From: a virus
Lineage: Duplodnaviria; Heunggongvirae; Uroviricota; Caudoviricetes
DNA length: 64,000 nucleotides
Direction: 5' to 3' (one strand)
Virus record (IMG/VR): IMGVR_UViG_3300033121_001869
Coordinates: 109,076-173,075 of that record
Shown here: piece by piece, positions 4,357 through 51,279 of the stretch
Numbering within the stretch: the first letter of the stretch is position 1
How the letters are laid out: each line of letters starts with the position of its first letter
Notes under the pieces: generated by a model
Told to the model about the DNA's origin: nothing
The model's database searches: none
Seen by the model: the letters and a program-made list of their open reading frames with translations, nothing else
Program-made: the position numbers and the translations under genes

Positions 4357-4467
4357 AGAACAAAATTAATATAATATATTTTACCAATGAAAATCTTTTA
4401 CCACCTGAATATTTGGCAGAAATTACATCAGATGTGAATATAATACTTGAAAAAATTAAAAAATATA

Positions 4468-5205: not shown

Positions 5206-5311
5206 ATTATGAAATATCTTAAAAAAATCATCTTAAAGGAATCTATCGAAATGTTAGATTCTAATTATATAGGGGATTCTAAGAGATATAATTGATAATG
5301 ATTATAAAGTA

Positions 5312-20946: not shown

Positions 20947-21663
20947 TTAAGATTTTATAATCAGAAATTCCGTACCCATAACTTGTTTCTTGGAAACTAT
21001 TTTATGATCTTTATACCACTCTTTCATTTCTGGAAAATTATAAGAACTTAATATCCAATTAGATTTAACAGAAGATAAAAAATTAAAGAGCTCAAAATGT
21101 GAATCATCATCAAAATTATGAAATGTGTAATATTTTGAATAGCCTTTATAGGGCGGATCCAAATATATGAAAGTATCCGAGTCAGTATCATACTTTTGAA
21201 TTATTTTTTTATAATCCACATTATGGATTTCTAATCTATCAAAATATTCTTTATACCTTTTTATTTTATATTTAAAAATCTCAAAATTGGAACTACCGAT
21301 ATACTCACGACTCATTAGATCCTTCATATTAGAAGAACATAAAATTATTAACCAAGCTAGAGCTCTATCACTTTTAAATCTGGAATTAATATCCTCAAAA
21401 GACTTATTAAAAGTATCCTCATTTAGTGTTGTTGAATCCAACCTATTGATAAATTTCTGTGATTTTAATTGTTCAAAAAGATTTGAATTCAATGGGTTAA
21501 TATCATTATAAATAAATTTAGTATCTGGGTATTCCTTTAGATTCAAAGAAAAGTATAATCCCATCATACCACCAAATGGTTCTATCCAATATTTTGGATT
21601 TTTTGGGCAAAATGGCAAAATAAAATCTGATAACTCCAATTTATTTCCAATATATCGAATCAT
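20947..21663 (-). CDS. N6-adenine DNA methyltransferase, D12 class (Dam-like)
   Basis: N-terminal YIGNK...EPFGG (motif I) and DPPY (IYLDPPYKGY, motif IV). Confidence 0.8.
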   Translation of the reverse strand: MIRYIGNKLELSDFILPFCPKNPKYWIEPFGGMMGLYFSLNLKEYPDTKFIYNDINPLNSNLFEQLKSQKFINRLDSTTLNEDTFNKSFEDINSRFKSDRALAWLIILCSSNMKDLMSREYIGSSNFEIFKYKIKRYKEYFDRLEIHNVDYKKIIQKYDTDSDTFIYLDPPYKGYSKYYTFHNFDDDSHFELFNFLSSVKSNWILSSYNFPEMKEWYKDHKIVSKKQVMGTEFLIIKS

Positions 21664-25006: not shown

Positions 25007-25890
25007 TTCGATGAGATATTGTTTATATGAATATAAAGATACTCGCCGGTATCTTTTAATTGTAAATTATAAAAATTAGAAGTTTGCAATACAAAATCCA
25101 CTAATGTTTTTGTACCTATATCACTATTTAAAAAATTATTTAATTCATCCACAATGCTTTCATAGTAAACAAAACATCCATCATCATCATTAATAACATA
25201 TTTATCAATTACAGAGGGTAAAAACTGAGCATAATTAGATCCCAATTTATTATGATTTATATAATATGAAATATTTTCAATTAATTGATTTTTAATGTAT
25301 TCAGCGATTTTTGATCCGACCATTTCAATAAATTTCTCAGGAGTTAAATTAATTGTTTTTAGTAATAATTGGCCATATAGTGTATTATGATATCCATAAG
25401 AATATTTAATTATCCACTCTTCGGGACTATCATTTAGAGCTGATACCCAACCCTCACCACCAAGTGAACATGAATAATTTAAATTTAATTTATCATTTAA
25501 ATAATATAAATAAGTATCAACATACCCATTAACATCATTTAGATGAAATTCATCAATAAACATTTTGAAATCTTGTGAAATCAATTTAGATACTTTACTA
25601 TCAAAAAGTTTTTTTATTATATCCAATGTGTAACCAGTTACATCTAGTATCTTTTGCATATCAGAGAAATCCTCCTCTGGGTCTGAATCACCACTAGCTA
25701 AATTTGAAAAATATGATTCATAGTAGGATGATAATGATTTTATCTTTTTTGCTAAATCACTTCTGTGTCTTTTAAAATATGAAATTGTTAAAGAAACTTC
25801 ACCATCTGATAAGTTATCTATTTTATCCCAATTAGATAAAAATTTATTATCGAGCTTCTCATTTAGAAATTGAGAATATTTTTTTATCAT
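25003..25890 (-). CDS. hypothetical protein
   Basis: ORF of 295 aa. Confidence 0.5.
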   Translation of the reverse strand: MIKKYSQFLNEKLDNKFLSNWDKIDNLSDGEVSLTISYFKRHRSDLAKKIKSLSSYYESYFSNLASGDSDPEEDFSDMQKILDVTGYTLDIIKKLFDSKVSKLISQDFKMFIDEFHLNDVNGYVDTYLYYLNDKLNLNYSCSLGGEGWVSALNDSPEEWIIKYSYGYHNTLYGQLLLKTINLTPEKFIEMVGSKIAEYIKNQLIENISYYINHNKLGSNYAQFLPSVIDKYVINDDDGCFVYYESIVDELNNFLNSDIGTKTLVDFVLQTSNFYNLQLKDTGEYLYIHINNISSN

Positions 25891-26723
25891 GCTTTTCCAT
25901 ACTTTTTATAAATAGACATAAAAGATTCGAATTTCTTAACAACAGATCCCTGTCCATCTTTCTTATTCCAAACTTTATTTAAAAAAAGTAGTTTATTTTT
26001 ATCAATTTTACAATTTCTGTTAGAGATATTACCTTTATTAAAAAATCCTATCATTTCCTCCATACTCATAGTAGGATGATGTTTATCAAAATTAGGATCT
26101 GGATGTGACCACCCAAACTTAAATAACCAATTTAATAAAGCCTTTTTATTAAAATCCTTATAGTCCTCGGTTGTTCCATTTCCACTTCTTTTGGAAAGTT
26201 TTTTATTTCCCTCAAATAATAAACCAGCGTGTATTACCTCTGGAAACTTTTTCTCTCCCTCAACCTTACATATTTCCTCCCATACCTTTTCTTGCTTTGG
26301 CAAATTACTAATATGGTCAACTCCTCTTATTATATGTGTTATGTCATAATCATAGTCATCCAAAGTTGAGCAAAAGTTATAAGTTGGAAATCCATTTTTT
26401 CTAAGAATTACCATTTTATAAGATCCCATATCTAACTCTAATCCATTCTCACCTTCAATTCCTATTTTTTCAGCAACTTCTTTATATCTATCCAATCTTT
26501 CAGATTCACGGAAAGTTATATCATAATCCAATCCAAATTCATTCATTTGATCATAGATATAATCTATATACTCTTGTTTATTTCTTTCTTGATCCGTATC
26601 ATCAATACGAAGTATAAATTTACCATTATTAGCTCGAGCCATTAAATAATTTAATAAAGCCGTTCTTAATGTGCCTAAATGAAAAATCCCCGTTGGTGAA
26701 GGAGCCACTCTAGTAACTATCAT
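25887..26723 (-). CDS. truncated class I glutamyl-tRNA synthetase core (GluQ-RS/YadB-like, no anticodon-binding domain)
   Basis: VAPSPTGIFHLGTLRTALLNYL...FILRIDDTDQER carries the HIGH motif. KLSKRSG is the KMSKS motif. GFPTYNFCSTLDD is conserved. The protein ends where the catalytic domain ends, at about 278 aa. Confidence 0.7.
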   Translation of the reverse strand: MIVTRVAPSPTGIFHLGTLRTALLNYLMARANNGKFILRIDDTDQERNKQEYIDYIYDQMNEFGLDYDITFRESERLDRYKEVAEKIGIEGENGLELDMGSYKMVILRKNGFPTYNFCSTLDDYDYDITHIIRGVDHISNLPKQEKVWEEICKVEGEKKFPEVIHAGLLFEGNKKLSKRSGNGTTEDYKDFNKKALLNWLFKFGWSHPDPNFDKHHPTMSMEEMIGFFNKGNISNRNCKIDKNKLLFLNKVWNKKDGQGSVVKKFESFMSIYKKYGKA

Positions 26724-27728: not shown

Positions 27729-27760
27729 TTTGGTTTTTTACATAATATTTATTAAATTTG
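27729..27760 (+). promoter_or_regulatory. candidate Bacteroidetes-type promoter TTTG-N20-TAAATTTG
   Basis: TTTG at 27729..27732 and TAAATTTG at 27753..27760. The ATG of the downstream gene is at 27770. Confidence 0.4.
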
Positions 27761-27769
27761 TACTTCTCT

Positions 27770-28459
27770 ATGGACTATAAATTATTAGACGTTGCCTTAA
27801 CTGGCTCAAGAAAATCAGGAAAACATGGTGTAGCTCAACTATTTAAGAAGTTAGGAGTTCCTATTTTTGATGCTGATACGGTACTTAAATACCTTTTAAA
27901 CTACAAACCTGAATTAATAAATTCTGTCCAAAAACAATTTGGCAAAGAATATGTATTTAATGGATATATAAATCCCATCGCTTTCGATACTGATGATAAA
28001 TTCAATCATCTAATAGATTTAGTGGAGTTTGAATTATTTGAAGCCTATGATAGATTCAAAAAGAAAACTGCTGAAAAAGAAAGTGGTTACCAATACACTA
28101 TGTTTTTATCCTCACTTATTTATGAGAGAAACTGGGTTAAAAAATTTGACAAAATAGTTTGTATTATGTCACCTAAACAAGATAGAATGTTTCGATATCA
28201 ACAAGAAACATTTGATGCTGTTTCGACAGTCAATGCCATTTTTGAAAATGAAATGAATGATTATAGAAAAAATCAAATGAGTGATTTCATTATTCACAAT
28301 TATGATGGATCAATAGAAGATATTTTAACTCAAATTCAAAAAATTGACGATAAATTAGTTGAAACATATTTACTTAAAAAAAGTAGAAATGTATTCAGCG
28401 ATACAGATAGATATGAAAGGGAAGATTATATAGATCTTAAAAATATTTTAACATTTTAA
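27770..28459 (+). CDS. CoaE-like (dephospho-CoA kinase family) P-loop kinase with a degenerate Walker A
   Basis: VALTGSRKSGKHGVAQLFKKLGVPIFDADTV parallels the CoaE N-terminus GLTGGIGSGKST...IDAD, but GK is followed by H rather than S/T. Confidence 0.45.
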   Translation: MDYKLLDVALTGSRKSGKHGVAQLFKKLGVPIFDADTVLKYLLNYKPELINSVQKQFGKEYVFNGYINPIAFDTDDKFNHLIDLVEFELFEAYDRFKKKTAEKESGYQYTMFLSSLIYERNWVKKFDKIVCIMSPKQDRMFRYQQETFDAVSTVNAIFENEMNDYRKNQMSDFIIHNYDGSIEDILTQIQKIDDKLVETYLLKKSRNVFSDTDRYEREDYIDLKNILTF

Positions 28460-31060: not shown

Positions 31061-32956
31061 ATGATTCAAACATTAATTTCTTTTTGGTGGGTAATTCCAA
31101 TTTTACTTTCACTAGTTTTTTACAAACTCATTTTCCGTCTTTTTGGTATCGTTATCATACCAGAAGATAAAATTGGATTGGTAACCAAGAAATTCGTTCT
31201 TTTTGGAGCCAATAAGCAACTTGATGATGATCGTATCATCGCAACAAAGGGCGAAGCAGGTTTTCAAGCTAAGACACTAGCACCCGGTATTCATTATTGG
31301 TATTGGCCTTGGCAATATGAGATTGATCAACAATCCTTCACTATTATTCCTGAAGGACACATCGGTCTTATTAACTCTAAAGATGGTGCTATTATTAAAA
31401 CAGGTCGAATCCTTTCACGAAAAGTGGAATGTAACAACTTCCAAGATGCTGAGGCGTTTTTGAATAACGGTGGTCAAAAAGGTCGTCAATCAGCTTTTAT
31501 CCCAAATGGTGTTTATAAAATCAACACTTTATTATTTGAAGTCTCAACTGTGCCACAAGTACAAATTCAAGATAATATGGTTGGTATTATTACAACCTTG
31601 GATGGTGAACCACTTGAACCTGGTACGATTGCTGGTAAATTGGTTGATAATGCTAAACACAACAACTTCCAAAATTTTGATGAATTTCTTAACGAAGGTG
31701 GTAATCGTGGTTTACAACAACAAATTATCCAAGCAGGTTCTTACAACTTAAACCCTTGGGCTATTCAAGTTGAAGAATTACCTATGACAGAAGTACCAAT
31801 TGGTAATGTTGGTGTTGTTATGTCTTATTATGGTGATGAAGGTGTTGATGTTACAGGTACCAACTTCAAACATGGTAACCTTGTATCAAAAGAACAAAAA
31901 GGTGTTTGGGCGGACCCTTTAAATCCTGGTAAATATGCCATCAATAAATACACCACAAAAGTTGAGGTTGTTCCAACAACAAACTTGGTTCTTAACTGGG
32001 CAAATGCTCGTAACGAATCTCACAATTTGGATAAAAACCTTAACACAATCACTGTTCGTTCAAAAGATGGTTTCACATTTAATTTGGACGTATCACAAAT
32101 TATTCACATTCCCATGAATGAAGCTCCTAAAGTTATCGCTCGATTTGGAAATATGAATAACCTTGTATCACAAGTTCTTGAGCCGACAATTGGAAACTAT
32201 TTCCGTAACTCAGCACAAGGATCTGATGCTATCTCTTTCTTAACTTCACGTCAAGAAAGACAAACTGAGGCTAAAGCTCACATTTCAAAAGTATTGGAAG
32301 AATATAACGTTTACGCCGTAGATACTTTGATTGGTGACATTACGCCTCCCGCAGCCCTAATGGAAACATTAACCTCTCGTAAAATTGCACAAGAGCAAAT
32401 CATTACGTTTGAGAATCAGAAAAAAGCACAAGTTCAACGTCAATCTCTTGAAAAAGAAACTGCAATTGCAGAAATGCAAAGAGAGGTTGTAAAAGCCGAA
32501 CAAGGTGTTATGATTTCTGAAAGAACTGCTGACGCAGTTGTTAAGAAACAAAGAGGTGATTCTGACGCTATCAAAATCGCAGCTGAAGCAGATGCACAAG
32601 CCACTGAATTGAGAGCAAAAGCTGAATCCACTCGTATCGCCCTTACCGGTCAAGCAGAATCTGAAAAGATTTTGGCAATTGGTAAAGCAAACGCTGAATC
32701 TTATGAATTAGCTGTTAAAGCAATGGGTAAAGAAAACTTCACCAGCTACAAAATCACCGAAGAGATTGGAAAATCTGGTATCCAATTAATGCCACAAGTA
32801 TTAATCGGTGGTAGTGGAGAAGGCGGTGTCAATGGAACTATGAATGGACTGTTGGCATACGAAATGTTGAACACTGTTAAAAAATCAATTCAATCTACTA
32901 CGGCAGAAATTGTCACACCAACAACTGAGCCTAAAAAGGATGAAAAAAAGAAATAA
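31061..32956 (+). CDS. flotillin-like SPFH/band-7 domain protein (YqiK-like)
   Basis: N-terminal TM helix, tandem SPFH-like segments, and a C-terminal Ala/Glu-rich coiled coil (AEADAQATELRAKAEST...). Codon usage is visibly GC3-richer than in neighbouring genes. Confidence 0.75.
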   Translation: MIQTLISFWWVIPILLSLVFYKLIFRLFGIVIIPEDKIGLVTKKFVLFGANKQLDDDRIIATKGEAGFQAKTLAPGIHYWYWPWQYEIDQQSFTIIPEGHIGLINSKDGAIIKTGRILSRKVECNNFQDAEAFLNNGGQKGRQSAFIPNGVYKINTLLFEVSTVPQVQIQDNMVGIITTLDGEPLEPGTIAGKLVDNAKHNNFQNFDEFLNEGGNRGLQQQIIQAGSYNLNPWAIQVEELPMTEVPIGNVGVVMSYYGDEGVDVTGTNFKHGNLVSKEQKGVWADPLNPGKYAINKYTTKVEVVPTTNLVLNWANARNESHNLDKNLNTITVRSKDGFTFNLDVSQIIHIPMNEAPKVIARFGNMNNLVSQVLEPTIGNYFRNSAQGSDAISFLTSRQERQTEAKAHISKVLEEYNVYAVDTLIGDITPPAALMETLTSRKIAQEQIITFENQKKAQVQRQSLEKETAIAEMQREVVKAEQGVMISERTADAVVKKQRGDSDAIKIAAEADAQATELRAKAESTRIALTGQAESEKILAIGKANAESYELAVKAMGKENFTSYKITEEIGKSGIQLMPQVLIGGSGEGGVNGTMNGLLAYEMLNTVKKSIQSTTAEIVTPTTEPKKDEKKK

Positions 32957-32978: not shown

Positions 32979-33007
32979 ACCCCGATGAAATCATCGGGGT
33001 TTTTTTA
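32979..33007 (+). terminator. strong intrinsic terminator
   Basis: ACCCCGATGA-AA-TCATCGGGGT perfect hairpin followed by TTTTTTT. Confidence 0.8.
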
Positions 33008-33017
33008 TATATATTAG

Positions 33018-33524
33018 ATGATGAAAAAATTTTCTAAATTGAATGAATCTATAAATAAAAAAATTTTAGATTGGTCACCCAATGATATTTTAGATTATTT
33101 AAATAAAATACCGGATTGTAAAGTCAGTTATAAATCAACACAGTTTGTTTTTCGTGATGATGGACATGAAATATGCACATTAGAAGAGATAAGTAGGGGT
33201 TCTATAAAAACATCTTGGAGTGAAATGGCTTTAGAATCAGATAATGAATACCATTTCCAATATACCTTTATACTCGATTTTGGCAATCTAATCGGCAGTG
33301 GCAACTATCTACTATTTGAACATGAGAAAGAACTTTCAATGGAAGAATTTATACCAATTAGTAAATTAACTAAAATATTTGCAGATATTGAGAATAATCT
33401 AACTACTCTTAGAAATGACTTCTATATTCATTTATATAATGAATCGAATTTGGATCTAAAATCACTATCATTTGAAATAGATTTCACATATAAAGACAGT
33501 GTGGAAAAAGAATATTTAATATGA
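33018..33524 (+). CDS. hypothetical protein
   Basis: ORF of 168 aa. Confidence 0.45.
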   Translation: MMKKFSKLNESINKKILDWSPNDILDYLNKIPDCKVSYKSTQFVFRDDGHEICTLEEISRGSIKTSWSEMALESDNEYHFQYTFILDFGNLIGSGNYLLFEHEKELSMEEFIPISKLTKIFADIENNLTTLRNDFYIHLYNESNLDLKSLSFEIDFTYKDSVEKEYLI

Positions 33525-33625
33525 AATACTTAAATAAATTTAGAATTTATGAGGCATCAAATTGGTGGGAGGAGAAATTAAAGGATTATGAATTAAAGCA
33601 TGATTATATATCCATTGGATGTAAC

Positions 33626-34042: not shown

Positions 34043-34077
34043 AATCTATTTATAAAATAATCACAGTCCCAAGCAAT

Positions 34078-34107
34078 AAAAAATCCCACACTTTTGTGGG
34101 ATTTTTT
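34078..34107. terminator. bidirectional-type hairpin terminator downstream of the S1-like gene
   Basis: AAAAATCCCACA-CTTT-TGTGGGATTTTTT. Confidence 0.55.
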
Positions 34108-34123
34108 ATGATTTTTGGATAAT

Positions 34124-35236
34124 TTAAATCGAGGTAAGGAATATCTTTCGATTAGTTCTATCAATCGCTAAAACTTTAACTCTTATTTCTTGATCAGGTA
34201 GAAATTTTCTACCCAATTTTTCCAATTCAGATGAGTGTATTAAACCCATTGTCTCGTCATCCAATAAGATTAAGGTTCCAAAGTTTTTATTATCTTTAAC
34301 CCTACCATCAATAACTTGTCCAATTTTAATATTATCCCATAGTGATTCACGAATAACTTGTGTTAGGATAATTTTGTCTTTAATAATTTCCTTAACATAG
34401 AAGTCAATTTCCATACCAGGTCGTATATCAGAAATTCTTTCTCTCCAATCAGACTGAATATTAGCCTTATGAATCATTCCTGTTAGACACTCATTAAATT
34501 CAACAAAAACACCAAATGGAGTTGTACCCGTAACATGACCATTATATACCGTTCCTGTCTTCAGTTCTTCAATTGCTTGTGGTATAAGTGTTTTTAAATA
34601 CTTTCTACGGCTAACAATATAAGTTCCTTCTTGGTCAGAATATGATTCAATCATAGCTTCGATTTCCTTCCCGACAATTGAATTTGGATCGTATAATTTA
34701 TTTATACCCGCCAAAGTATTTGGCATAAATCCCGGTAATGTAATACCATCATGTAAAATATCAACGTCATATCCAGCTGGATTCAAATTTTTAATTTGAA
34801 TCATAACAACTAAATCTTCGTCTAGTGATTTTAAATGTTCATGAGCTCTTGACTCATAAATACCACAAATAGATCCTTGTAAATAGTAATTTTCCTCATT
34901 AACTGAAACAAGTAAAATATCAATTCTATCACCAATTTGTGTATTTTTTAAATACTTAACCTCACTGATTCTATTTTCAATATAAACATCATCTTTAAAT
35001 CCATCAATGGAAAAAACATGTTGATTAGCAGAAATTCCCTTGTATATCCCCGAAACAATTTCATTCTCTACGGGTTGGTTAATTTGTACGTTGGTTAGTA
35101 ATTTTAATAAATTTTGGTATTCGGGTGTGTTGGGATATTTAACTTTACGACCTCGACTTTTCCTTTTTTGATCCTGTAATATTAGATCGTCCCAAAATTG
35201 TTTTTCATCAATTTCAATTGATTTATTTTCTATCAT
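34124..35236 (-). CDS. ribosomal protein bS1-like protein with multiple S1 RNA-binding domains (truncated relative to bacterial S1)
   Basis: Several S1 OB-fold repeats. Domain 1 GIYKGISANQHVFSIDGFKDDVYIE...ESRAHEHL parallels E. coli S1 GTVVAIDKDVVLVDAGLKSE...REKAKRHEAW. Later domains carry G.V.G....FG.FV...L.G.IH signatures. Confidence 0.7.
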   Translation of the reverse strand: MIENKSIEIDEKQFWDDLILQDQKRKSRGRKVKYPNTPEYQNLLKLLTNVQINQPVENEIVSGIYKGISANQHVFSIDGFKDDVYIENRISEVKYLKNTQIGDRIDILLVSVNEENYYLQGSICGIYESRAHEHLKSLDEDLVVMIQIKNLNPAGYDVDILHDGITLPGFMPNTLAGINKLYDPNSIVGKEIEAMIESYSDQEGTYIVSRRKYLKTLIPQAIEELKTGTVYNGHVTGTTPFGVFVEFNECLTGMIHKANIQSDWRERISDIRPGMEIDFYVKEIIKDKIILTQVIRESLWDNIKIGQVIDGRVKDNKNFGTLILLDDETMGLIHSSELEKLGRKFLPDQEIRVKVLAIDRTNRKIFLTSI

Positions 35237-35286
35237 TTTTTAAATTTTTAAAGTTCTTTGTTTATAGAATAAGAGTATTATGAAGT

Positions 35287-35709
35287 TTAAAATTTTGAAA
35301 GATTATTTGTCTTCATATAATCTCTTATACGAGCTGCCTCTTCATAATCCTCCATCTCAATTGACTTTTTTAGCTTGAAATTTAATTCTATTTCTAATTC
35401 ATCTTTGGTTTTTTTACGTCTTAAATTTTCTAGATCATCAATTATAGATGAGTAATACTTATTCATATCTGAAATAGAATTAAAATGTAATTGCTTATCA
35501 CTAACCCCATTTACCGACATATCAGATAGTGTATCATTATCATTTATTTTTTTCAAAAAATCTGGATTTATTGCTTTATTTTCTATCAGAAATTTTGATA
35601 AATGATAAGGCCTATTTTTAAATAGTTTTAAAATAACTAGAAAATTATCAAATTCATGATTCATATTATTTTTAAATTTTTTCATAGAACAATTTAAAGA
35701 AATAATCAA
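35287..35709 (-). CDS. hypothetical protein with C-terminal UVR-like motif
   Basis: C-terminal EMEDYEEAARIRDYMK resembles the UvrB/UvrC UVR-domain consensus (..EEAA.LRD.I..). Confidence 0.4.
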   Translation of the reverse strand: MIISLNCSMKKFKNNMNHEFDNFLVILKLFKNRPYHLSKFLIENKAINPDFLKKINDNDTLSDMSVNGVSDKQLHFNSISDMNKYYSSIIDDLENLRRKKTKDELEIELNFKLKKSIEMEDYEEAARIRDYMKTNNLSKF

Positions 35710-36776: not shown

Positions 36777-39700
36777 TTAACCAGTTGTTACATAATAAGT
36801 TGTTACATAATAATTATCTTCATCACAATATATCTTCAATCCATTTCTAAAGATAGAACCCAATAATGATACTTGGTTAGAATTAACCAACAAGATTAGC
36901 TCATACAATTCGGATAATATCCCCGGGCTACCATATTGACCAATTCCATTAGCTAGTGATGCTGGAATAAGTGAGTATATATCGTCAAAAGCATTATCAA
37001 ATTCAGAGTCACTTGTTAATGTTAAAGAATTTAATGATAGATAAGATTCAAAATTACTCCAATTAGGTGAACTACCAGTGGCAGATATCGAACAAGTTCC
37101 AGATATATCCGTAAGAAAATCAGAAAATGGAGTTTTAATGATAAATGCATTAGATGGACCTATCTTATATTGTAGATAGGAAACAAATTGTGGTCCACAA
37201 TCTGGACAACAAAGATTTTGCTCAGATTTTGGAATTGTTAATCCATATGTAATACTACCTAAAATATCCTCAGCATCATAATTATTAATTTCAAATAAAT
37301 ATCGTAAAATTGACTTACAAGATACTTTTTGACTAGCTCCTATTTTAACATCACAAACATCTGATTGATATTTAACTGACAATACATAATGACCCTCTTC
37401 AATTTGAGTATGTATATTTTCATCTCCGGGCGGATATACTCTAAAAATAAAATTTTTACTTAAAAAGATATCTTGTGATAATATTATATCGATTATTTGC
37501 TGATAATAATCTTCCCAATCCTGTTGTGTATTCCCACTTGGAACATCTAATATAGCATCAAAATCAACTGTTACATCGCCAGATTGGAAATGGAATGTTA
37601 TTTCACTACCATCTGTTTCCAATATAAATTGAACATCACATAAATTACCCGTGTCGTATAAAGATGAATTAGTGAATAATTCAATATCATAAAACAAAGG
37701 CATATAATATCCACTATGTCGAAAGAATTTTTTAAAAACATTTGATTTTTGATTATTTAAATTTTTCAAAATTTTATCATCCTTCTTTATATTGAATATT
37801 TCAACACCAAGTGGTAAATCATTATAAAAATCAATCTTCTCAAGATTGTCTATCTGACCATTGATTAAATACCTATATGGTTTTAAATTGGTTTTATCTA
37901 TTGTGTTTGGTTTATATATGAGTGAATTATTTTTTAAATTAAAAGAATCTGGCTCTTCACAGATTAAAATATATGGTAGATTTTCCAAATTATTGCGGAA
38001 GCTGTATTTAGAAATAGATCCATTTTCCTCAATAATAACATATGAGGTATAATCAACAAACCCATACAATGAATCTAAATCATTTATTTGTCTTATAAAA
38101 TTGGCAGCTGTCAATCTGCCATTTGTTTCCTTATATAAATAATCTCTTTCAATATTTTTGGTTTCATCCATGATATTATCATTACCTAAAATTGTATTAT
38201 CATTAATACTTATATTAACTAAAATATTTTTCCATTTTTTATTGATGAATATAGTAATACCACTATCAATAGTCAAATCTGGATTAAATTTACAATAGTA
38301 ATAACAGTCATTTATCTTAATAATTGAATTATCATCAGGTTGATAATTATAAGTTGTATCGGGAACAAAACTATAAATTCTTCTCCAAGATGTAGATTCT
38401 CCCGGTATTTCATCCGAATTTGTACCTATATCAGTAAAATATAAAACATCATTATAACAAACAAATGTATTTGGATCATAAATAGGAAGATTTTTATCCC
38501 ACAATTGAACAGGTATCCATTTTGGGTAAGAACTTCCAACTCCTACTTGAGAAGAAACCTCTGACCAATAATTTGTGACACTTGATGATTGTATTTTTCG
38601 ATTATATGTTAACGGACGAATACCAGATGGGACAGAATAATTAGACATGTAAAATCTATTATTGTAGATAACATATGTTCCGCTTGAATATGTCGTTCCT
38701 GGATTCCAAAAATCAAAACCACTTGGGTTATAATTATAGTAATATTCGTCGAATTTATAAACCCAAGATGATGTTGATCCAGATGTATTATAAGATGACA
38801 CAGAATTCCAAAATTGATTAAATGTAGTTTCAATTTGATAGTTTGTTGATAATGTCGTAGGATTATCATAAGGATTTGATATAGAATCTCCAATAATAAC
38901 TCTAAAAATTATACCTTCATAAAAAACAAAATCATTAATTTGATATTGCTTATCATGCTCCCAATTTTTAATTACATCCCATTGCATTTTCTTTCTCCAT
39001 ATGCCTGGTTGAGCATAAGATGATGTATGATACATTTTATCTAAAACAACACCATATCCAGCAGTTTGTAATGCGCCATATGTTGCAACAATTGATGCAG
39101 TTGCTTGATATTGTGGTGTCACATAAGGATAGAACTGATCTATTTCTAAATAATCACCAATATTGAAAACTGATGGTGTAGCTGAATATGATGTTAATAA
39201 TGATAATTTATTATTAGATTTTGTCGTATCAATAAAATAATCCCATTCATATGGTTTATATAGTCCACCACTATCAGATACCATCCAATCATTACTACTC
39301 AAAAGTATAGAAAATTTATAATCTTGAAATTTATTACTGGACACCAAATTAATATTCTCAATAAATGTTGAATTATATTTAATGTTATCAACTTCGAAAA
39401 GTCTAAATTTTAATCCTCTAAATAATGTAGTATTTGGAATAACATTGTCACCTGTTTCGAACCAAGAATATTTCTTTCGATTCATTACTATCTCACCATC
39501 AATAAATGACTGTGTAGTTGAAAAAAATAAATCAAAATAATTAAAATCATATGAATAATCTAATCCAGAAAGTGAGTAAGATCCAAGTTCTAAATATTTA
39601 TCAATCTCAAATCTATATGAGGAATCTTGAAATTGTCCGAAATTTTTCTCAACATGTAAAGAGTGGAATAAATATGAAGTAGTTCCCGAATTAACTGTAT

Positions 39701-41711
39701 AGAAATAATCTAAATTTCTAGATGTCCTATCAGGAATTAGATTTTGAGTATCGACAGTTCTATTAAATTGCTCATGAATATCATTATTATTCAATAAATA
39801 TGGATAATCATATGATGATAATGAATTTTGATATACCCATCGAGTATGTATTGGATTCTTCCTCCAAATATCGGAAAGCTTTTTATCCAAAATTCTAAAA
39901 GTTTCCCAATTTGCTGTATAATCAGAAGCTACCGGAACATTTTCAGTTTTTCCCTTAAATATAAAATCATCAAAATCTTGTGGTGAGGAAGAACTTCTTA
40001 AATCTGTTAACATCATTTTAGATTCCTCAGTTTTATTTAAATCATTTCTCTTTTCATATTCAAATCTAGAAAATTCAGTGTCTATGATATTTGTATCAAA
40101 ATCTTTAATATCGCTAAATTTAGCTCGATATATTTTAAAATTTTTCGGTGGATTATTAGTTTTTATTAAAAGATCAATAGAGTTTGTATATCCATCTTCT
40201 CCTGAATTAGTATAATATGTAAATTTACTATTTATGGCATATTTAAATCCATAATCCGAGACAACCTTAACATAACCATCTTCAATAATTAAATTGTGAT
40301 AAATACCATCAATATCAATAATATTAACATCAGCAAATGTAAAATCTGATATTTCATATGGGGTGCCATCTATTTTGACTATTTGATTTTGTTCATTAAT
40401 ATAACAAGTTTTTTGATTCAAGTAAGATTGCTGTCCTGATAAATTTATATCTGATATAATTCTATATTTTGTAACAACTGGATTATTAACACTATCAATT
40501 ACTACCTTTTTATTATTAGAACCTTTACTAACTGCACTAACCGATGTCTCTAATGTTTCTTCGAATTTTTTAACTATATAAAAATCACCATTGTATTCAA
40601 CCCACATATCTATATCAGATCTATACCCATCAACAAAAGGATCTCCATGAGAATCACTTGAAATAATATTTCCAGATCCTGTTGGACCATAAATAGTCAC
40701 ATCATTATGTAATCTTGGTAAGACAAAAGGAGTTATTTTATCAATAACTTCTAATTCATCTAAATAAAATCCAGAATATCGATTTAAAGACCATTTTCTT
40801 ATTGAAGTTGGAGATGAAGGGGTATCATCAAAAAGATAACTAATATTTAAAATATGTGGAAATATGACTTTATTAACTCTGAATCCATCCAAAAACATTT
40901 TCTCAAAGTCAAATAAATTATTTTCATTTTCTAAATTCTCATCTAAATAGAAAGATTTTGAAACATATCCACCACTATCATAATCAATGCCATTCCACTT
41001 ACTAAATTCTAATTCATTAAAATCAATCTCTAAAGGAGCAACTGGAAAATTAGCATTATTAGAGAAATTATTATAAATCCACTCACCAAATAAAGTATTT
41101 TTAGTTAAGTCAAATATCTTAACTGTTTTTAATTTTTGTAAAAATTCAGTTCTGAAGTTCTCTCTTGTCAAATTTATAAGTCCAGGACCATCAACTCTAA
41201 AAATAATAAAGTATTTGGGAATGGAATGTTTAAAAACATACAATGGCGCAAAATATTCAAATTCTTCTTTATAATTTTTATTATCAATTATATTTCGAGC
41301 ACCTGATAAATATGTATCATCATATTGTGATGCAAAATCTGTTGACATATTATCATTATCATTATCATATTTTATAGATAATGCCAAATCAATAGGGAAA
41401 TCCTTAAAAAAGTAAGGAATTAATTCATCCAAATAATTGTTTTTATTGAACTGTACCTTCTTAAATCGAGTTGACGATAACTCAGGCGCTGAATCAATGC
41501 TCTCCATATAAAAATTATATTGAGAATCAACCATAATTTTTATATTACCTGTTAATCCAGTATTTGTTCTTAATATTGAGAAACTTCGCAACTTAAAATG
41601 TTTTTTAAATATATATTTAAAAGTTAATGGCTTAATGAGATTTATAAAAAGAATAAATGAATTATCAGATAATAGAATAGATTTTCTTTGGGATTTTTTC
41701 ATTGAAGCCAA
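36777..41711 (-). CDS. large virion structural protein (1644 aa; tail or baseplate-associated); true start probably internal
   Basis: Long uninterrupted ORF. The first about 60 codons are Lys/Phe-rich and look like AT-rich non-coding. M60 (nt 41534) or M69 (nt 41507) is a more plausible start. Confidence 0.65.
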   Translation of the reverse strand: MASMKKSQRKSILLSDNSFILFINLIKPLTFKYIFKKHFKLRSFSILRTNTGLTGNIKIMVDSQYNFYMESIDSAPELSSTRFKKVQFNKNNYLDELIPYFFKDFPIDLALSIKYDNDNDNMSTDFASQYDDTYLSGARNIIDNKNYKEEFEYFAPLYVFKHSIPKYFIIFRVDGPGLINLTRENFRTEFLQKLKTVKIFDLTKNTLFGEWIYNNFSNNANFPVAPLEIDFNELEFSKWNGIDYDSGGYVSKSFYLDENLENENNLFDFEKMFLDGFRVNKVIFPHILNISYLFDDTPSSPTSIRKWSLNRYSGFYLDELEVIDKITPFVLPRLHNDVTIYGPTGSGNIISSDSHGDPFVDGYRSDIDMWVEYNGDFYIVKKFEETLETSVSAVSKGSNNKKVVIDSVNNPVVTKYRIISDINLSGQQSYLNQKTCYINEQNQIVKIDGTPYEISDFTFADVNIIDIDGIYHNLIIEDGYVKVVSDYGFKYAINSKFTYYTNSGEDGYTNSIDLLIKTNNPPKNFKIYRAKFSDIKDFDTNIIDTEFSRFEYEKRNDLNKTEESKMMLTDLRSSSSPQDFDDFIFKGKTENVPVASDYTANWETFRILDKKLSDIWRKNPIHTRWVYQNSLSSYDYPYLLNNNDIHEQFNRTVDTQNLIPDRTSRNLDYFYTVNSGTTSYLFHSLHVEKNFGQFQDSSYRFEIDKYLELGSYSLSGLDYSYDFNYFDLFFSTTQSFIDGEIVMNRKKYSWFETGDNVIPNTTLFRGLKFRLFEVDNIKYNSTFIENINLVSSNKFQDYKFSILLSSNDWMVSDSGGLYKPYEWDYFIDTTKSNNKLSLLTSYSATPSVFNIGDYLEIDQFYPYVTPQYQATASIVATYGALQTAGYGVVLDKMYHTSSYAQPGIWRKKMQWDVIKNWEHDKQYQINDFVFYEGIIFRVIIGDSISNPYDNPTTLSTNYQIETTFNQFWNSVSSYNTSGSTSSWVYKFDEYYYNYNPSGFDFWNPGTTYSSGTYVIYNNRFYMSNYSVPSGIRPLTYNRKIQSSSVTNYWSEVSSQVGVGSSYPKWIPVQLWDKNLPIYDPNTFVCYNDVLYFTDIGTNSDEIPGESTSWRRIYSFVPDTTYNYQPDDNSIIKINDCYYYCKFNPDLTIDSGITIFINKKWKNILVNISINDNTILGNDNIMDETKNIERDYLYKETNGRLTAANFIRQINDLDSLYGFVDYTSYVIIEENGSISKYSFRNNLENLPYILICEEPDSFNLKNNSLIYKPNTIDKTNLKPYRYLINGQIDNLEKIDFYNDLPLGVEIFNIKKDDKILKNLNNQKSNVFKKFFRHSGYYMPLFYDIELFTNSSLYDTGNLCDVQFILETDGSEITFHFQSGDVTVDFDAILDVPSGNTQQDWEDYYQQIIDIILSQDIFLSKNFIFRVYPPGDENIHTQIEEGHYVLSVKYQSDVCDVKIGASQKVSCKSILRYLFEINNYDAEDILGSITYGLTIPKSEQNLCCPDCGPQFVSYLQYKIGPSNAFIIKTPFSDFLTDISGTCSISATGSSPNWSNFESYLSLNSLTLTSDSEFDNAFDDIYSLIPASLANGIGQYGSPGILSELYELILLVNSNQVSLLGSIFRNGLKIYCDEDNYYVTTYYVTTG

Positions 41712-41952
41712 AGATGATGGATTAGATGTAAATATTGATTATAGTTCGGATAGAAAGCTAATTGTAGTAAAAATAAAAGATCCTTTGGAAATTTACGGAC
41801 ATTTATATGTTTTAGAACATAAAAAAGAAATGAGGGAAATGATTGATAGATTATTATCTATTGATAATAATATAATCTCATCTAAACTATATACAAGTGA
41901 TAAATCTCTAATACTGTATATTCGAGTGGATAAACTTGATAAAATTATTTAA
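41635..41952 (+). CDS. hypothetical protein (opposite strand, between two large structural genes)
   Basis: A 105-aa ORF filling the gap between the minus-strand genes. It conflicts with the extended N-terminus of the 1644-aa ORF. Confidence 0.25.
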   Translation: MRFIKRINELSDNRIDFLWDFFIEAKDDGLDVNIDYSSDRKLIVVKIKDPLEIYGHLYVLEHKKEMREMIDRLLSIDNNIISSKLYTSDKSLILYIRVDKLDKII

Positions 41953-44900
41953 CAATTGTGCTATAATTCTTAGGCTTAGATGCGTATGTAACTTTGTTTC
42001 GATTCAAATTAAATGTTAGTGTAAAAACAAACGGCTTATTTTCAGCTTCATTTTCCAAAAAGAAAATAAGCTTCTTAATATGTTTAACTGTCTGTGTTTG
42101 TTTATTCAAATTAATATATTCATAATTTACACCCGTCTGTGTATTATCTAAAGCATTCATTTTAAAATAAATATTAATTGGAATAACAATTTCCCCACCA
42201 CCATCAAGTGTTTTTACCTTATCCTGATTTGTTTCAGTAATATCATCAATTTCATTAATAACTGGATGTATAGTAGTTAAAAATTTAGTTGTAGATCCAA
42301 CTGATAATGTTGTATCTCTCCATTTACTATTATCTAATAATGAGTTATTGCTAGAAACAAATGAGAGTGGTTGATTCTCAGAATATCCAACATTATACTC
42401 ATTTAAACTCAGAATATTTGTTATCGAGTTATTATTCAATGAAGTGAAACTATTCCCAATATTTTCTGATAATCGAGTCACAACATTAGTCTGACTAGTA
42501 ACTGCTTCGTAGTTCACTAACCAAATGAATTGATTATTAACTTGCGTCTTACTAACACCAGAAACATCAGAAAATATTAATTCATCTTGATTATTAACCC
42601 AGAATGACTGAGGAACACCAGTATTATAAACATCAGAATTATTAGCATATGTTCGGTTAGATAGGAGTCCCAATACAGAATCAACAGATTTATTTCTAAC
42701 TCTCAAAGCAAAATCCTTAATAACATAAATATTATTTGAATAAACTCTTCCCGTTGGAATTCCTGTTCCTGTAAAAGGTTCTAAATAGTCTTCACACTCA
42801 ACATTAAAAGTTGTTTCAGAATTATTACCGATAACAAATTCTTGATTATTTCTAATAATAATAATTTCCAATTCTCCCTTGGCTCTTTTGATTTTTTCTT
42901 CTAATGATTTAACTCTTGTTTCTAATTTCTGCAAATATTCAAATAAATCCAAAGCAGTTCCATTCTCATCCTTAAATCCGGATAACATCCTATCTGATGA
43001 ACTTGTGTACACCTTATTATTAATAGTGACGATGTCTGCTAATAAATCGTTCAGACCATTAGCCACCAAATCGTTCTGAACGCTAACTTTTAGATCCTCC
43101 TTAGATGCCTCATTCAATATAAAATCAGTATCATTTAGTACATTGTTCAAATCATCTGGGAAATCGACAGATAAAATTTCAGACCAGTCAGATTCAACAG
43201 GTGATTCCGGCCAACCAACCTCGGATATACTTTTAATTCTCAATTCTACTCTCTCACCAGAATTAATCGCAATATCAATTTGATTAATATTTGGAGTGTC
43301 AGCATTTTCAATATCCTCAATCTGCCATGTATATGTGTTATTAGATTTGTCAAAAACTCTTTTACGGACATCAGTTTTAAATTCATTCCAATTTGAAAAA
43401 GCTGCTGTCTTTTGTTGATTATTTTCCGTAACATTAAATGTTTCAACACTTGGCTCTTTACCATCCTTCGATGTATATCTATATTGAATTCTGAATTGAA
43501 CAATCTCTTGGGGTAAAGTGCCTCTTGTTGAAACAGCTTCTGGCATATTCCAGAATCCTCTTAGTCTGTATTTAGGATCTATTTTTGTTGTACTTTGACG
43601 ACTTAAATCAATAATTTCCTGAACAGTCGTTGATAATAATTTTGATTTTGATACCTTCTTTTTATTCAAATCATCAATTTCTAATTCAAATTTTTTCCGT
43701 TCAGAAGAGGATGTAAACTTAGTTATTTTTAATTTTTTATTTCTATCATCAAGAGCTTCTTGTATTTGTCTAATTTCATTTTTAAGCGAAATCTGATAAT
43801 TGTGTTTATTTTTCAACAAATTAGAATCCGGCGTATCTGTCAAATGTTTATTAACTTGGACCACTTTAAAATTATTAGGATCTAAAACAACAATATTTGG
43901 AGATCCTGAAAGCTTATTTGGAGTTTTTTTCGCAACCAAATCTTGCAAAACTAATCCATAATCATAAACAACATCAACATAAAATTGTTCCATTGTTTGT
44001 CCATTATAAGAATCATTAGATGATACTCTCAAATCATTAGTATAATATCCTGTTCCAAGTGACCAATCTTTAGCTACTAAATTATTATCAGCATTAACCG
44101 GTTTAATAAAAGTAACATTTCTCTCATTATAGCCAATACTTATTCTAACCTTCTTAGTATAAATAACCGGAGAATAGATTTTTAAAGTTCCAATTCCAAC
44201 TGGTATTGGCTGCAATCCCTCAATTCTTTCCAATCTAACTCTTGGATTTGATTCACTTGTAGATATTTCAACAATTCGGTATCTTGTATTAGATATTGCT
44301 TGGTTTATAATCAACTCATTACCAATAGATAATTGTTTTACCTCGGATGTTTCATTTATTAAAAAATCTAATGTATTTAAATGGTACCATAGTTTTCTAT
44401 TAAGTGTATCTTCTTCAATTTTAATAACATTAAAAACACCATCATATAATAGAGTATTTGGCTCTAAATCAAAAACCTGCTCATCATATTTTGGAAAAAT
44501 TGGATCAACAATTCCCGGTGTTGTTTTGTACCATCTTTCAAATTCTTGAATGTCAATATTATTCTTTTGCTTATAAAGAGAATTGAAGCTGTCTAAAGCA
44601 CTTTGTCCTAAATTGGTAAAATTACCATCAGCATCCTTTGAAAATTCAACAATATATCTTCTAACTAAACATTTACGAACATTGTTTTCAATTTTATCAC
44701 TTAGATCAAATTCTATTTTCAAAATTGGATTTAATAAACCATCAAAAAACCAATTCTTCTCAGATTTAAACTGACCAACAATAGATAATGTATCAATAGC
44801 ATTTGGTTCTCTATTTAAATCAACTGTAATTATCTTCTTAAATTGATTTTGTGATGTTGTTTGTATCAAAGCACCAGTTGTATCAATACTATAAAGTGAA

Positions 44901-45118
44901 TTTATAGAATTATTAAGTCTTTCAATTTCCCCCTTAAGATAGGTAAAAGATGGTAATGAGTATGTATTTATCACACCATTAGCATCAAATATGCGAACAT
45001 CAACAGAGGGATCGACTGTGGTTGACAATGAATTTATTTTAGATAGTATCTCAGTAATATTTTTATTATAAGATATTACTTGTTCAGCAACAGTTGCAAA
45101 AGAACTCTGAATTGGCAT
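41945..45118 (-). CDS. large virion structural protein (1057 aa; baseplate or tail)
   Basis: Long ORF in the structural block. The size is similar to T4 baseplate wedge gp7, but no motif-level identification was possible. Confidence 0.65.
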   Translation of the reverse strand: MPIQSSFATVAEQVISYNKNITEILSKINSLSTTVDPSVDVRIFDANGVINTYSLPSFTYLKGEIERLNNSINSLYSIDTTGALIQTTSQNQFKKIITVDLNREPNAIDTLSIVGQFKSEKNWFFDGLLNPILKIEFDLSDKIENNVRKCLVRRYIVEFSKDADGNFTNLGQSALDSFNSLYKQKNNIDIQEFERWYKTTPGIVDPIFPKYDEQVFDLEPNTLLYDGVFNVIKIEEDTLNRKLWYHLNTLDFLINETSEVKQLSIGNELIINQAISNTRYRIVEISTSESNPRVRLERIEGLQPIPVGIGTLKIYSPVIYTKKVRISIGYNERNVTFIKPVNADNNLVAKDWSLGTGYYTNDLRVSSNDSYNGQTMEQFYVDVVYDYGLVLQDLVAKKTPNKLSGSPNIVVLDPNNFKVVQVNKHLTDTPDSNLLKNKHNYQISLKNEIRQIQEALDDRNKKLKITKFTSSSERKKFELEIDDLNKKKVSKSKLLSTTVQEIIDLSRQSTTKIDPKYRLRGFWNMPEAVSTRGTLPQEIVQFRIQYRYTSKDGKEPSVETFNVTENNQQKTAAFSNWNEFKTDVRKRVFDKSNNTYTWQIEDIENADTPNINQIDIAINSGERVELRIKSISEVGWPESPVESDWSEILSVDFPDDLNNVLNDTDFILNEASKEDLKVSVQNDLVANGLNDLLADIVTINNKVYTSSSDRMLSGFKDENGTALDLFEYLQKLETRVKSLEEKIKRAKGELEIIIIRNNQEFVIGNNSETTFNVECEDYLEPFTGTGIPTGRVYSNNIYVIKDFALRVRNKSVDSVLGLLSNRTYANNSDVYNTGVPQSFWVNNQDELIFSDVSGVSKTQVNNQFIWLVNYEAVTSQTNVVTRLSENIGNSFTSLNNNSITNILSLNEYNVGYSENQPLSFVSSNNSLLDNSKWRDTTLSVGSTTKFLTTIHPVINEIDDITETNQDKVKTLDGGGEIVIPINIYFKMNALDNTQTGVNYEYINLNKQTQTVKHIKKLIFFLENEAENKPFVFTLTFNLNRNKVTYASKPKNYSTIVK

Positions 45119-50667: not shown

Positions 50668-51279
50668 ATGACATCGAAGGCAATTTTTTTCCCAGAACAA
50701 GAACAATTTTTTAAAGAAAGAACAGGTAAGGATTTTATATTTTTTTATCAAAAATACTATCCAAAACTACTTTACTACACATCAAAGATGTGTTTATCAG
50801 CTAAAATGGATTCTGCTAAAGCAGAGGACATCTCCACAGATTCATTTCTAATCGCATTTGAAAAAATCGATAAATATGAAAAAGAAAAAGCTCAATTCTC
50901 AACATGGCTATTTACGATAGCTAGAAATCTTATGCTACAAGAAATAAAAAACAATGGCAAAACAATGTCAATGGATATTGAAGTAGATGATGAGGGAACA
51001 ACAATGAAAGATTTTCTAAAAGAGGCAGAATCGGAGCAACCAAGACAAAATCTAATTGAGAAAAAAGCAGAAATAATGCTTAAACATATTTCTCAACTAA
51101 AAGAACCCTATAAACAAGTAATTGAAATGAGGGAAATTAAAAAAATGGCATATAAAGATATTGCCAGTCATTTAGGCAAAAACCTATCTACAATTAAATC
51201 GCAAATAAGAAACGGTAGAGCTATTCTAATTGCAGAATCTGAAAAGGAATTCGCACAACTTGAAGAAATGTATCTATAA
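50668..51279 (+). CDS. RNA polymerase sigma-70 family factor (ECF-like: regions 2 and 4)
   Basis: Region 2 FSTWLFTIARNLMLQEIK and a region 4 helix-turn-helix YKDIASHLGKNLSTIKSQIRNGRAIL. Confidence 0.7.
   Translation: MTSKAIFFPEQEQFFKERTGKDFIFFYQKYYPKLLYYTSKMCLSAKMDSAKAEDISTDSFLIAFEKIDKYEKEKAQFSTWLFTIARNLMLQEIKNNGKTMSMDIEVDDEGTTMKDFLKEAESEQPRQNLIEKKAEIMLKHISQLKEPYKQVIEMREIKKMAYKDIASHLGKNLSTIKSQIRNGRAILIAESEKEFAQLEEMYL

Follow-up and report, generated by a model that had tools for sequence, protein, structure and literature searches.

Genes for a possible ribosomal protein S1 (rpS1) were previously described in huge phages of the Mahaphage clade with predicted Bacteroidetes hosts, where a true rpS1 proved hard to confirm and where the question of an action at the ribosome or away from it was left open (Al-Shayeb et al. 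2020, Nature 578:425; PMC7162821). Mizuno et al. (2019), who gave 4 to 6 as the number of S1-domain repeats in bS1, treated S1-domain proteins as ambiguous and put them aside. Here we report on a gene of this kind, located in a stretch of 64,000 nucleotides of viral DNA, hereafter referred to as the window (positions 109,076 to 173,075 of IMG/VR record IMGVR_UViG_3300033121_001869). An earlier note, made from the sequence alone, had called its 370-residue product a truncated S1 homologue, had pointed to the heavy dependence of ribosomes of the Bacteroidetes on S1, and had suggested that a phage S1 could redirect initiation to phage mRNAs. The gene shares with the huge-phage rpS1 genes the clade, the genomes lacking Shine-Dalgarno (SD) motifs and the hypothesis that initiation is hijacked, and its product is likewise a multi-S1-domain protein of a huge phage. 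Since its closest relatives were found in genomes of uncultured phages of 630-735 kb, a size as in the study by Al-Shayeb et al. (2020), it does not represent a new class. The existence of phage S1 genes was already known and the hypothesis already published, and the present gene is a better-characterised member of that known class. The analysis adds a resolved architecture of domains 1 to 4 (d1-d4), the large size and phage-specificity of the family, a conserved lysine matching that of the uS2 pocket, an N-terminal motif of the Bacteroidia type followed by a phage-specific basic loop, and the pairing with a phage-encoded bS21.

With respect to cellular proteins, the phage protein shares with the bS1 of the Bacteroidia (Flavobacterium johnsoniae; PDB chain 9zcd_A) a helix-loop-helix in front of d1, an aromatic-acidic F(x)W motif in the first helix, the collinear order of d1-d4 and SD-less translation. 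The Bacteroidia protein, however, has six domains (591 aa), an acidic loop and the motif F-[ND]-W, whereas in the phage protein the domains number four, the loop is longer and basic, and no spacer residue separates F and W. In structures of F. johnsoniae initiation complexes and 30S subunits (Nucleic Acids Research, 2026; PMC13000457), residues 1-42 of bS1 form a helix-loop-helix that is stably bound on uS2 and uS8, with the helix FLANFNWHNF contacting uS8. This N-terminal density was lost without bS21, and bS1 was not visible past its N-terminal 40 residues (PMC13000457). An Escherichia coli S1 without d5-d6 (PMC3858243) has the same d1-d4 content, but is an engineered gamma-proteobacterial deletion that works beside SD pairing and without the N-terminal extension.

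Two phage proteins also come close. The bS1 homologue of the jumbo cyanophage PhiMa05 has, like the present protein, been proposed to replace the host protein (PMC13157829); its gene clusters phylogenetically with Vampirovibrio bS1 and adjoins other ribosomal protein genes, whereas the present family is deeply diverged from cellular S1 and phage-specific. The S1-like protein of Lak-C1 (MK250029.1; L005:3434-4543; 369 aa) shares the d2-d3 core, including AFMPGS... and VTGTTSFGVFVE, with 42% identity over residues 148-294. In the Lak-C1 protein, however, d4 is absent and an unrelated N-terminal region of ~190 aa replaces the helix-loop-helix and d1. Because of this replacement, we class it as a distinct architectural variant without the putative ribosome-anchor elements.

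Similarity of the phage protein to bS1

The Pfam S1 model (PF00575) matched the protein at E = 9.3e-21 (74.4 bits), and both of the strong stretches of this match fell in the C-terminal half. Full-length rpsA models from NCBIfam were collinear with it over residues 38-367 (E = 1e-28 to 1e-30); NF004952 placed these residues on profile positions 28-371 of 580 (E = 1.6e-28), and TIGR00717 (rpsA) reached E = 5e-24. When the PDB was searched with phmmer, bS1 chains ranked first. Specifically, E. coli S1 residues 53-342 paired with residues 90-365 of the phage protein, while the best single match was the mycobacterial bS1 chain 8wi7_b (479 aa; E = 5.2e-19, residues 165-367). An AlphaFold2 model was built from an alignment of 17 family sequences, and its mean predicted local distance difference test (pLDDT) score was 77.7. 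With this model, Foldseek placed ribosome-bound bS1 chains at the top of the PDB matches (9gut_B, E = 8.8e-22, 354 aligned columns), with CvfB, RNase R, Tex and NusA ranking far below them. Furthermore, when the d1-d2 half of another family member (P0134) was searched alone against the PDB, only bS1 chains were retrieved, the best being 2mfl_A (E = 4e-8; aligned residues corresponding to E. coli S1 18-178).

Models of generic S1-domain proteins, Tex among them, matched in part, over one domain only and with far weaker scores (PNPase 50 bits versus 471, RNase R 36 versus 598, GSP13 70 versus 148), and the Pfam search revealed no further domain besides those of the S1 type: the signature and catalytic domains of the PNPase, RNase and Tex class were absent. 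The claim of an S1 homologue with several S1 domains was thus borne out by the PF00575 and rpsA matches and by the first rank of bS1 in the PDB at both sequence and fold level. The same holds for the expected rpsA-like domain order, as opposed to that of RNase E, PNPase or Tex, since the best profile, sequence and fold matches were all to bS1/rpsA and collinear through d4. Identity to any cellular S1 was only ~20-30%, and in the PHROGs search neither the S1 protein nor its small neighbours matched any family significantly.

Domain architecture

In the AlphaFold2 model, helices at residues 11-27 and 38-48 precede four OB barrels (~60-122, 143-209, 230-293 and 308-369), and linker helices are found at residues 124-136 and 210-223. 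A MAFFT alignment with the S1 of E. coli and other cellular S1 proteins showed that the protein comprises d1-d4 and stops where d4 stops, with residue 365 corresponding to E. coli residue 342. As in cellular S1, d1 and d2 are degenerate and escaped the Pfam S1 model, while d3 and d4 were detected; domain parsing with PF00575 and alignment to rpsA, the checks suggested beforehand, both fit the rpsA domain order. The alignment with E. coli S1 also recovered the previously noticed pairing of ESRAHEHL with EKAKRHEA, which lies in the helix linking d1 and d2. The OB-fold repeats do continue after d1 as had been supposed, and in the AlphaFold2 model three of them follow, where at least two had been noted.

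Conservation of individual residues was counted over 213 family members. At the canonical aromatic and histidine positions for RNA binding, conservation was 88-99% in d3 (F241, F244 and H256) and 77-91% in d4. OB domain 2 carries a phage-specific insertion of four residues in the MAFFT alignment, and d4 was in addition weakly matched by the Pfam RRP5 S1 model (residues 305-362).

The six-domain architecture of Gram-negative and Bacteroidia S1 was not found, as the protein ends at d4 and d5-d6 are absent. Natural S1 proteins can, however, have fewer than six domains, as exemplified by the four-domain S1 of Actinobacteria and Firmicutes. With numbers ranging from 4 to 6 among S1 proteins, six domains are no universal requirement. 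The four-domain proteins (e.g. 8wi7_b) are cellular, belong to other phyla and lack the F-W helix and the basic loop, and the match to 8wi7_b covers d2-d4 only.

The N-terminal helix-loop-helix and its basic loop

For comparison with the host-type anchor, bait sequences for a Flavobacterium-like S1, a Bacteroides-like S1 and a Bacteroidia-like bS21 were used, and only the database sequences retrieved with them served as evidence. In this way, 120 N-termini of Bacteroidota S1 proteins were gathered from Flavobacterium, Alistipes, Dysgonomonas, Muribaculaceae, Prevotellaceae, Bacteroidaceae and others. The N-terminus of the Flavobacterium-type chain 9zcd_A reads MSEQTKSQEEFLANFNWHNFQEGIDAVDEKNLQEFEELVSKTF, and F-[ND]-W was present at the anchor position in 117 of the 118 scorable Bacteroidota sequences. 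The Bacteroidia anchor motif F-[ND]-W-x-x-[FY]-E compares with Q-F-W-D-D-L of the window protein, which lies in the predicted helix 11-27. Indeed, hhalign aligned the phage N-terminal half with Bacteroidota S1 at a probability of 99.7% (E = 2.9e-25; ~17% identity in the aligned N-terminal region), starting from phage residue 11 and F. johnsoniae residue 12, and paired phage helix 1 with the bS1 motif at F. johnsoniae residues 12-23, LANFNWHNFQEG. When the segments preceding d1 were aligned alone, the score was 22.0 (pairwise E = 1.4e-5), a value that was not reached by any of 200 column shuffles (mean 7.2, maximum 15.4). At position 14, 59% of the family carry F and 23% carry L, and at position 15, 52% carry W. 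This showed, at the level of sequence comparison, that the N-terminal helix-loop-helix resembles the Bacteroidia-specific anchor of bS1.

The loop between the two helices was different. According to hhalign, the phage basic segment represents an insertion of 10 residues relative to the Bacteroidota bS1 loop, and the median loop length was 17 residues in the phage family versus 11 in Bacteroidota S1. The median net charge of this loop (residues 19-38 of the window protein) was +2 in the 213 phage proteins, 63% of which had a charge of at least +2, whereas in the matching loop of 92 Bacteroidota S1 proteins the median was -1 and none reached +2. Judged by these comparisons, the basic inter-helix loop is the clearest phage-specific difference from Bacteroidota S1.

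Residues corresponding to ribosome contacts of bS1

In E. coli, Phe5 and Phe9 of the N-terminal S1 helix stack on Phe32 of uS2 and are essential, Lys43 in the beta2-beta3 loop of d1 enters the zinc pocket of uS2, and F120 and F130 of OB2 form a pocket at the mRNA exit channel (PMC4288201, PMC10123108). The lysine and both OB2 aromatic positions are strongly conserved in the phage family (Table 1). The helix at residues 38-48 lies at the position of the uS2-binding helix, and divergent family members read PYAQELYDL or SYAKDLYAL in this region. Should the register of helix 2 be shifted, Y40 could stand in for the missing aromatic residue.

A phage-specific family of conserved length

The best relatives obtained by tblastn against phage genomes were located in genomes of 630-735 kb, namely LR756502 (60% identity), LR745206 (56%), LR756504 (41%) and LR756501 and LR756503 (both 39%); the Lak megaphages of Prevotella gave partial matches only. 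Around the S1 gene, 12 genes were syntenic with LR756502, while LR756501 and Lak-C1 share the S1 gene alone. As the synteny with LR756502 does not extend to LR756501 or Lak, the position of the gene carries no deep functional signal.

Family members are ~360-380 aa long, and more than 120 clusters at 90% identity have at least 60% identity to the query. At 50% identity, 124 clusters with E values of at most 1e-30 were found, nearly all of 350-420 aa, and long cellular S1 proteins first appeared at ~1e-27. In IMG/VR, 285 loci were confirmed on contigs of up to 508 kb. A cellular origin of the family was considered and rejected, as a search of 185,579 species genomes of bacteria and archaea gave only four matches, each on a contig of a metagenome-assembled genome and each putatively mis-binned phage DNA. 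Moreover, an identical protein with the same neighbours was present on 15 contigs from several independent datasets. We therefore regard the family as a conserved, phage-specific four-domain architecture. The protein does end before six domains, as the word 'truncated' had implied, but this word is wrong in the sense that the length of ~360-380 aa is conserved across the phage-specific family and the protein is naturally four-domain. A pseudogene or a truncation during assembly was ruled out by this family-wide length conservation together with the identical protein in independent samples.

SD-poor leaders and a co-encoded bS21

Out of 64 genes in the window, only 2 were preceded by an SD-like tetramer, and with another gene set 1 out of 61, versus a background of 7.4%. 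Leaders were then compared over 372 genes from related loci (L003 and L006-L047) and 61 window genes, taking the first ATG as start, which makes positions approximate. Among the 372 genes, the SD-like fraction was 2.7%, and G accounted for at most 9% at every listed leader position (-22 to -1) and was depleted throughout. In this larger set, the z-scores of adenine were +3.0 to +5.9 at positions -11 to -13 and +3.0 at -3, indicating enrichment, and -4.2 at -1, indicating depletion. In F. johnsoniae, A-12 and A-13 of the adenine signature are postulated contacts of bS1 (PMC13000457), and the A enrichment in the phage leaders resembles this signature.

The window also encodes a 66-residue bS21 homologue, whose nearest PDB chains are of the Bacteroidia type (9i5v_9, 43 bits; F. 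johnsoniae 7jil_z, 40 bits) versus 22-24 bits for chains from other phyla. A bS21 gene was present in the four distinct related megaphage genomes with an S1-like gene, and the search revealed none in LR756500 or in the Lak phages. We infer that the phage bS21 is a functional partner at the same ribosomal site. The SD-poor, A-rich leaders and the Bacteroidia-type bS21 lend support to the Bacteroidetes-type host implied in the earlier note; most likely, the host is a member of the Bacteroidia.

The phage bS21 differs at one position of interest. The Bacteroidia-specific Tyr54, which stacks on A1534 and sequesters the anti-SD sequence, is replaced by Arg in this bS21 (KAIRKKDW), where Trp58 follows after one helical turn, while the Tyr is kept in the bS21 of LR756504, LR756501, LR745206 and LR756502 (KAIY[VI]Q). 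Chen et al. (2022), who did not study bS1, found an aromatic residue at the Tyr54 position in all 61 phage bS21 proteins analysed. The bS21 gene is overlapped at its 3' end by an open reading frame (ORF) in a different frame, at 3516-3959 (+). The product of this ORF has zinc-ribbon-like CxxC...CxxC motifs and a weak match to the NMD3 family (E = 0.0014), and the true start of the ORF is probably located downstream of the bS21 stop codon.

Proposed function and alternatives

We propose that the gene product is a phage-specific bS1 paralogue of a Mahaphage/Lak-related megaphage, for which the rpsA order of d1-d4 was shown by the alignments. With a probability of roughly 0.55, this paralogue docks on the host 30S subunit and recruits SD-less phage mRNAs. 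During infection, the protein would dock at the bS1 site of the host 30S subunit, helix 2 and the K81 loop binding uS2 and helix 1 (F14-W15) binding near uS8. The extra basic loop may add contacts with the 16S rRNA and help in the competition with host bS1, while d3-d4 would capture the A-rich, SD-less phage leaders, possibly in preference to others, and feed them to the decoding channel. Host bS1 would be supplemented or replaced, probably jointly with the co-encoded phage bS21. Four domains should suffice for this, as judged from work on E. coli S1 (Duval et al. 2013, PMC3858243): cells grow with a protein that has lost d5-d6, and d1-d3 are still able to bind the 30S subunit, to bind mRNA and to melt RNA.

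Several observations weigh against this proposal. The scores of the protein are far under the curated rpsA cut-offs (NF004952 99.3 versus 524, TIGR00717 84.7 versus 577, and NF000907 106.4 versus 624 bits), and because of this we regard it as a divergent bS1-like paralogue and not as an equivalent of rpsA. Of the two Phe residues essential for uS2 binding in E. coli, only part is kept in the phage family, where the equivalent of Phe5 is mostly L or M, and the N-terminal helices were modelled with low confidence (pLDDT ~53-65). The F-W match is short (11 columns), lacks the spacer residue and has a pairwise E-value; the motif occurs in 78 of 140 scored family members and in 6 of 30 distant representatives, with variants such as D-[IV]-F-E. 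In single-sequence searches, the protein as a whole was not clearly nearer to Bacteroidota S1 than to other S1 proteins. When placed by cellular phylum, Bacteroidales S1 N-termini scored 88-96 bits versus 74 for E. coli, with F. johnsoniae at only 75 and one further protein of 811 aa at 92. The N-terminal resemblance could consequently reflect retained ancestry, convergence or, in part, chance. Finally, the neighbouring genes gave no functional hint in the Pfam and PHROG searches, and the host is one that we infer.

An RNA-binding factor acting off the ribosome, be it a chaperone, an mRNA protector or a subunit or cofactor of a phage enzyme, appears rather unlikely to us, but has precedents in the host S1 of Q-beta replicase, to which d1-d2 bind, and in T4 RegB. 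The protein-interaction module d1-d2 of S1 is reused by Q-beta replicase via the uS2-binding residues (PMC4288201; Foldseek matches 4q7j and 4r71), and a protein under the rpsA cut-offs would fit such a role. Against this stand the conserved uS2-pocket lysine and the retention in the window protein of a Bacteroidia-type anchor motif observed solely on the 30S subunit. Moreover, no conserved enzyme gene adjoins the S1 gene: the gene order is not kept in LR756501, and neither Pfam nor PHROG assigned a function to the neighbours. These anchor elements, together with an extra basic loop in place of the acidic host loop and the absence of d5-d6, would also suit a competitive decoy that occupies the bS1 site, excludes host bS1 and narrows the range of loadable mRNAs, serving mainly for host shut-off. 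The binding of bS1 is weak and reversible (PMC7797042), which makes an exchange plausible. However, the RNA-binding residues of d3 and d4 would be superfluous for a pure blocker and are strongly conserved (88-99% and 77-91%, respectively), and E. coli S1 without d5-d6 is functional rather than inhibitory, so that we hold a decoy to be quite unlikely.

Almost no credence can be given to a recently captured or decaying fragment of a host rpsA gene without adapted function. The protein is indeed shorter than the six-domain S1 of Bacteroidia (591 aa, 9zcd_A), but its identity to cellular S1 is ~20-30%, and it is conserved in more than 120 clusters at 90% and 124 clusters at 50% identity and at 285 viral loci. 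In addition, the intact ORF comes with a leader and a likely terminator of its own and encodes an identical protein in several samples. The family-wide conservation effectively refutes this explanation.

The preferred reading, an S1 paralogue docking on the 30S subunit, can be taken one step further, albeit speculatively and with little expectation on our part. Phage bS1 and bS21 would then form a matched pair that rebuilds the mRNA-exit platform into a phage-specialised Bacteroidia ribosome, in which S1 with its uS2/uS8 anchor and basic loop would outcompete host bS1. The bS21 with Arg for Tyr54 might alter the hold on the 3' tail of the 16S rRNA, and initiation would be biased to leaders with A-11 to A-13.

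For the choice of start codons without SD sequences in the Bacteroidia, and for the share that bS1 has in this, the phage S1 offers a ready-made probe, because this minimal S1 keeps a host-type anchor and two RNA-binding domains and comes in hundreds of natural variants. It could be used to determine which parts of S1 are sufficient for SD-less initiation, whether the phage protein competes with its host counterpart for a single site, and whether phage-specialised ribosomes exist. The cautious 'possible rpS1' of the huge-phage literature hereby becomes a specific claim that is testable by mutagenesis of F14/W15, K81 and the basic loop. With the anchor and loop features identified, the F. johnsoniae in vitro system (PMC13000457) makes the published phage-S1 hypothesis directly testable.

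Gene boundaries and flanking signals

The features of the S1 gene and its product are listed in Table 1. M1 is the only plausible start, because the next ATG occurs no earlier than residue 144 and the N-terminus is conserved in the homologues. The gene is the last long one of a minus-strand block encoding proteins of 1057, 1644, 121, 241 and ~132-140 aa, followed by S1. A palindromic hairpin with T-runs on both sides lies 15 nucleotides past the S1 stop codon and likely represents a bidirectional intrinsic terminator. A scan for sigma-70 promoters gave 30 sites versus 27.5 expected, which is background, and was disregarded.

Stop-codon recoding is known in some megaphages. As a source of the S1 'truncation' it was ruled out by the coding density, ORF lengths and stop usage of the window: the GC content is 24-33%, the coverage by ORFs that start with ATG and have 90 aa or more amounts to 88% under code 11, ORFs reach up to 2312 aa, and the stop codons are TAA (53), TGA (7) and TAG (4).

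Table 1. Coordinates and residues of the phage S1 gene, its product and associated elements in the window
Feature	Position	Strand	Basis and remarks
Complete coding sequence of the phage bS1-like protein	34124..35236	-	Sole ORF there; 370 aa, ATG start; stop codon 34124-34126
S1-gene leader	35237..35286	-	50 nucleotides, A/T-rich, without SD motif; direct reading of the sequence
N-terminal helix 1, residues 11-21 (EKQFWDDLILQ), aromatic-acidic motif F14-W15	35174..35206	-	AlphaFold2 helix 11-27, low confidence
Basic inter-helix loop, residues 22-37 (DQKRKSRGRKVKYPNT), phage-specific insertion	35126..35173	-	hhalign, charge count
N-terminal helix 2, residues 38-48 (PEYQNLLKLLT)	35093..35125	-	AlphaFold2 helix; aligned by MAFFT to E. 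coli SFAQLFEESL
OB domain 1, residues 59-122, degenerate, loop G79-F80-K81-D82	34871..35062	-	AlphaFold2 strands 60-122
d1-d2 linker helix, residues 123-136, holds ESRAHEHL	34829..34870	-	AlphaFold2 helix 124-136; aligns to E. coli EKAKRHEAW
OB domain 2, residues 137-209 (PAGYDV...GFMPNTLAGINKL), most conserved part of the family	34610..34828	-	Invariant block in the 17-sequence alignment
OB domain 3, residues 225-296, canonical RNA-binding S1 domain	34349..34564	-	Best Pfam S1 stretch 225-288; aligns to E. coli d3
OB domain 4, residues 297-370, canonical S1	34127..34348	-	NCBIfam GSP13 (301-367) and CvfD (303-367); AlphaFold2 strands 308-369
L43, equivalent to E. coli Phe5			Mostly L or M among 213 members
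L47, equivalent to E. coli Phe9			Aromatic in 63% of 213, otherwise hydrophobic; Leu in this protein
K81, equivalent to E. coli Lys43			K in 92%, R in 6% of 213; no variation among the 17 aligned sequences
Y156, equivalent to E. coli F120			Y/F in 99% of 213
F170, equivalent to E. coli F130			F in 98% of 213
Palindromic hairpin, T-runs on both sides	34076..34109	unstranded	Terminator scan (+ strand) and minus-strand reading AAAAAATCCCACAAAAGTGTGGGATTTTTTATT
bS21 homologue, 66 aa	3449..3649	+	PF01165, 44.8 bits versus a cut-off of 27

Neighbouring and other genes in the window

Among the immediate neighbours, Pfam detected a weak UVR motif (35287-35709), an SPFH domain (31061-32956) and a faint CBM_5_12 match (36777-41711). 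The SPFH/Band 7 protein (31061-32956, +; 631 aa) has an N-terminal hydrophobic segment and 72% identity to its LR756502 counterpart, and its gene is convergent with the S1 block. Contigs with an identical S1 protein (L094-L097, ~4600-6300; window 33000-33620) are not alike in gene content between the gene for a 138-aa protein downstream of S1 and the SPFH gene, where one to four small ORFs are inserted. This points to the region between these two genes as a local hotspot of gene turnover. Upstream of S1 and in the same strand block, the giant ORFs for proteins of 1644 aa (36777-41711, -), with only the faint CBM_5_12 match, and 1057 aa (41945-45118, -), matching phrog_29329 with function unassigned in PHROG, are conserved in LR756502. 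A third giant ORF (8171-15109, -; 2312 aa) had no Pfam or PHROG match.

No tRNA genes were found in the 64-kb window. A 278-aa protein (25887-26723, -) consists solely of the catalytic domain of class I Glu/Gln tRNA synthetases (PF00749, E = 1.4e-50) and, judging from its size, could be a tRNA-modifying enzyme resembling glutamyl-Q tRNA(Asp) synthetase. An RNA ligase with an OB domain of the PHA02142 type (15905-16993, +; PF09414, E = 2e-16; PF21189, E = 4e-8) possibly serves in tRNA repair. As other genes for host takeover or maintenance, we grouped those for an ECF-type sigma factor (50668-51279, +), DnaJ (4447-5205, +), Sir2 (17564-18289, +), a Dam-class methyltransferase (20947-21663, -), a non-specific endonuclease (2543-3175, -), a dephospho-CoA kinase (27758-28459, +), an NAD-dependent DNA ligase (45470-47338, +) and an SbcC/SMC-like ATPase (96-1886, +).

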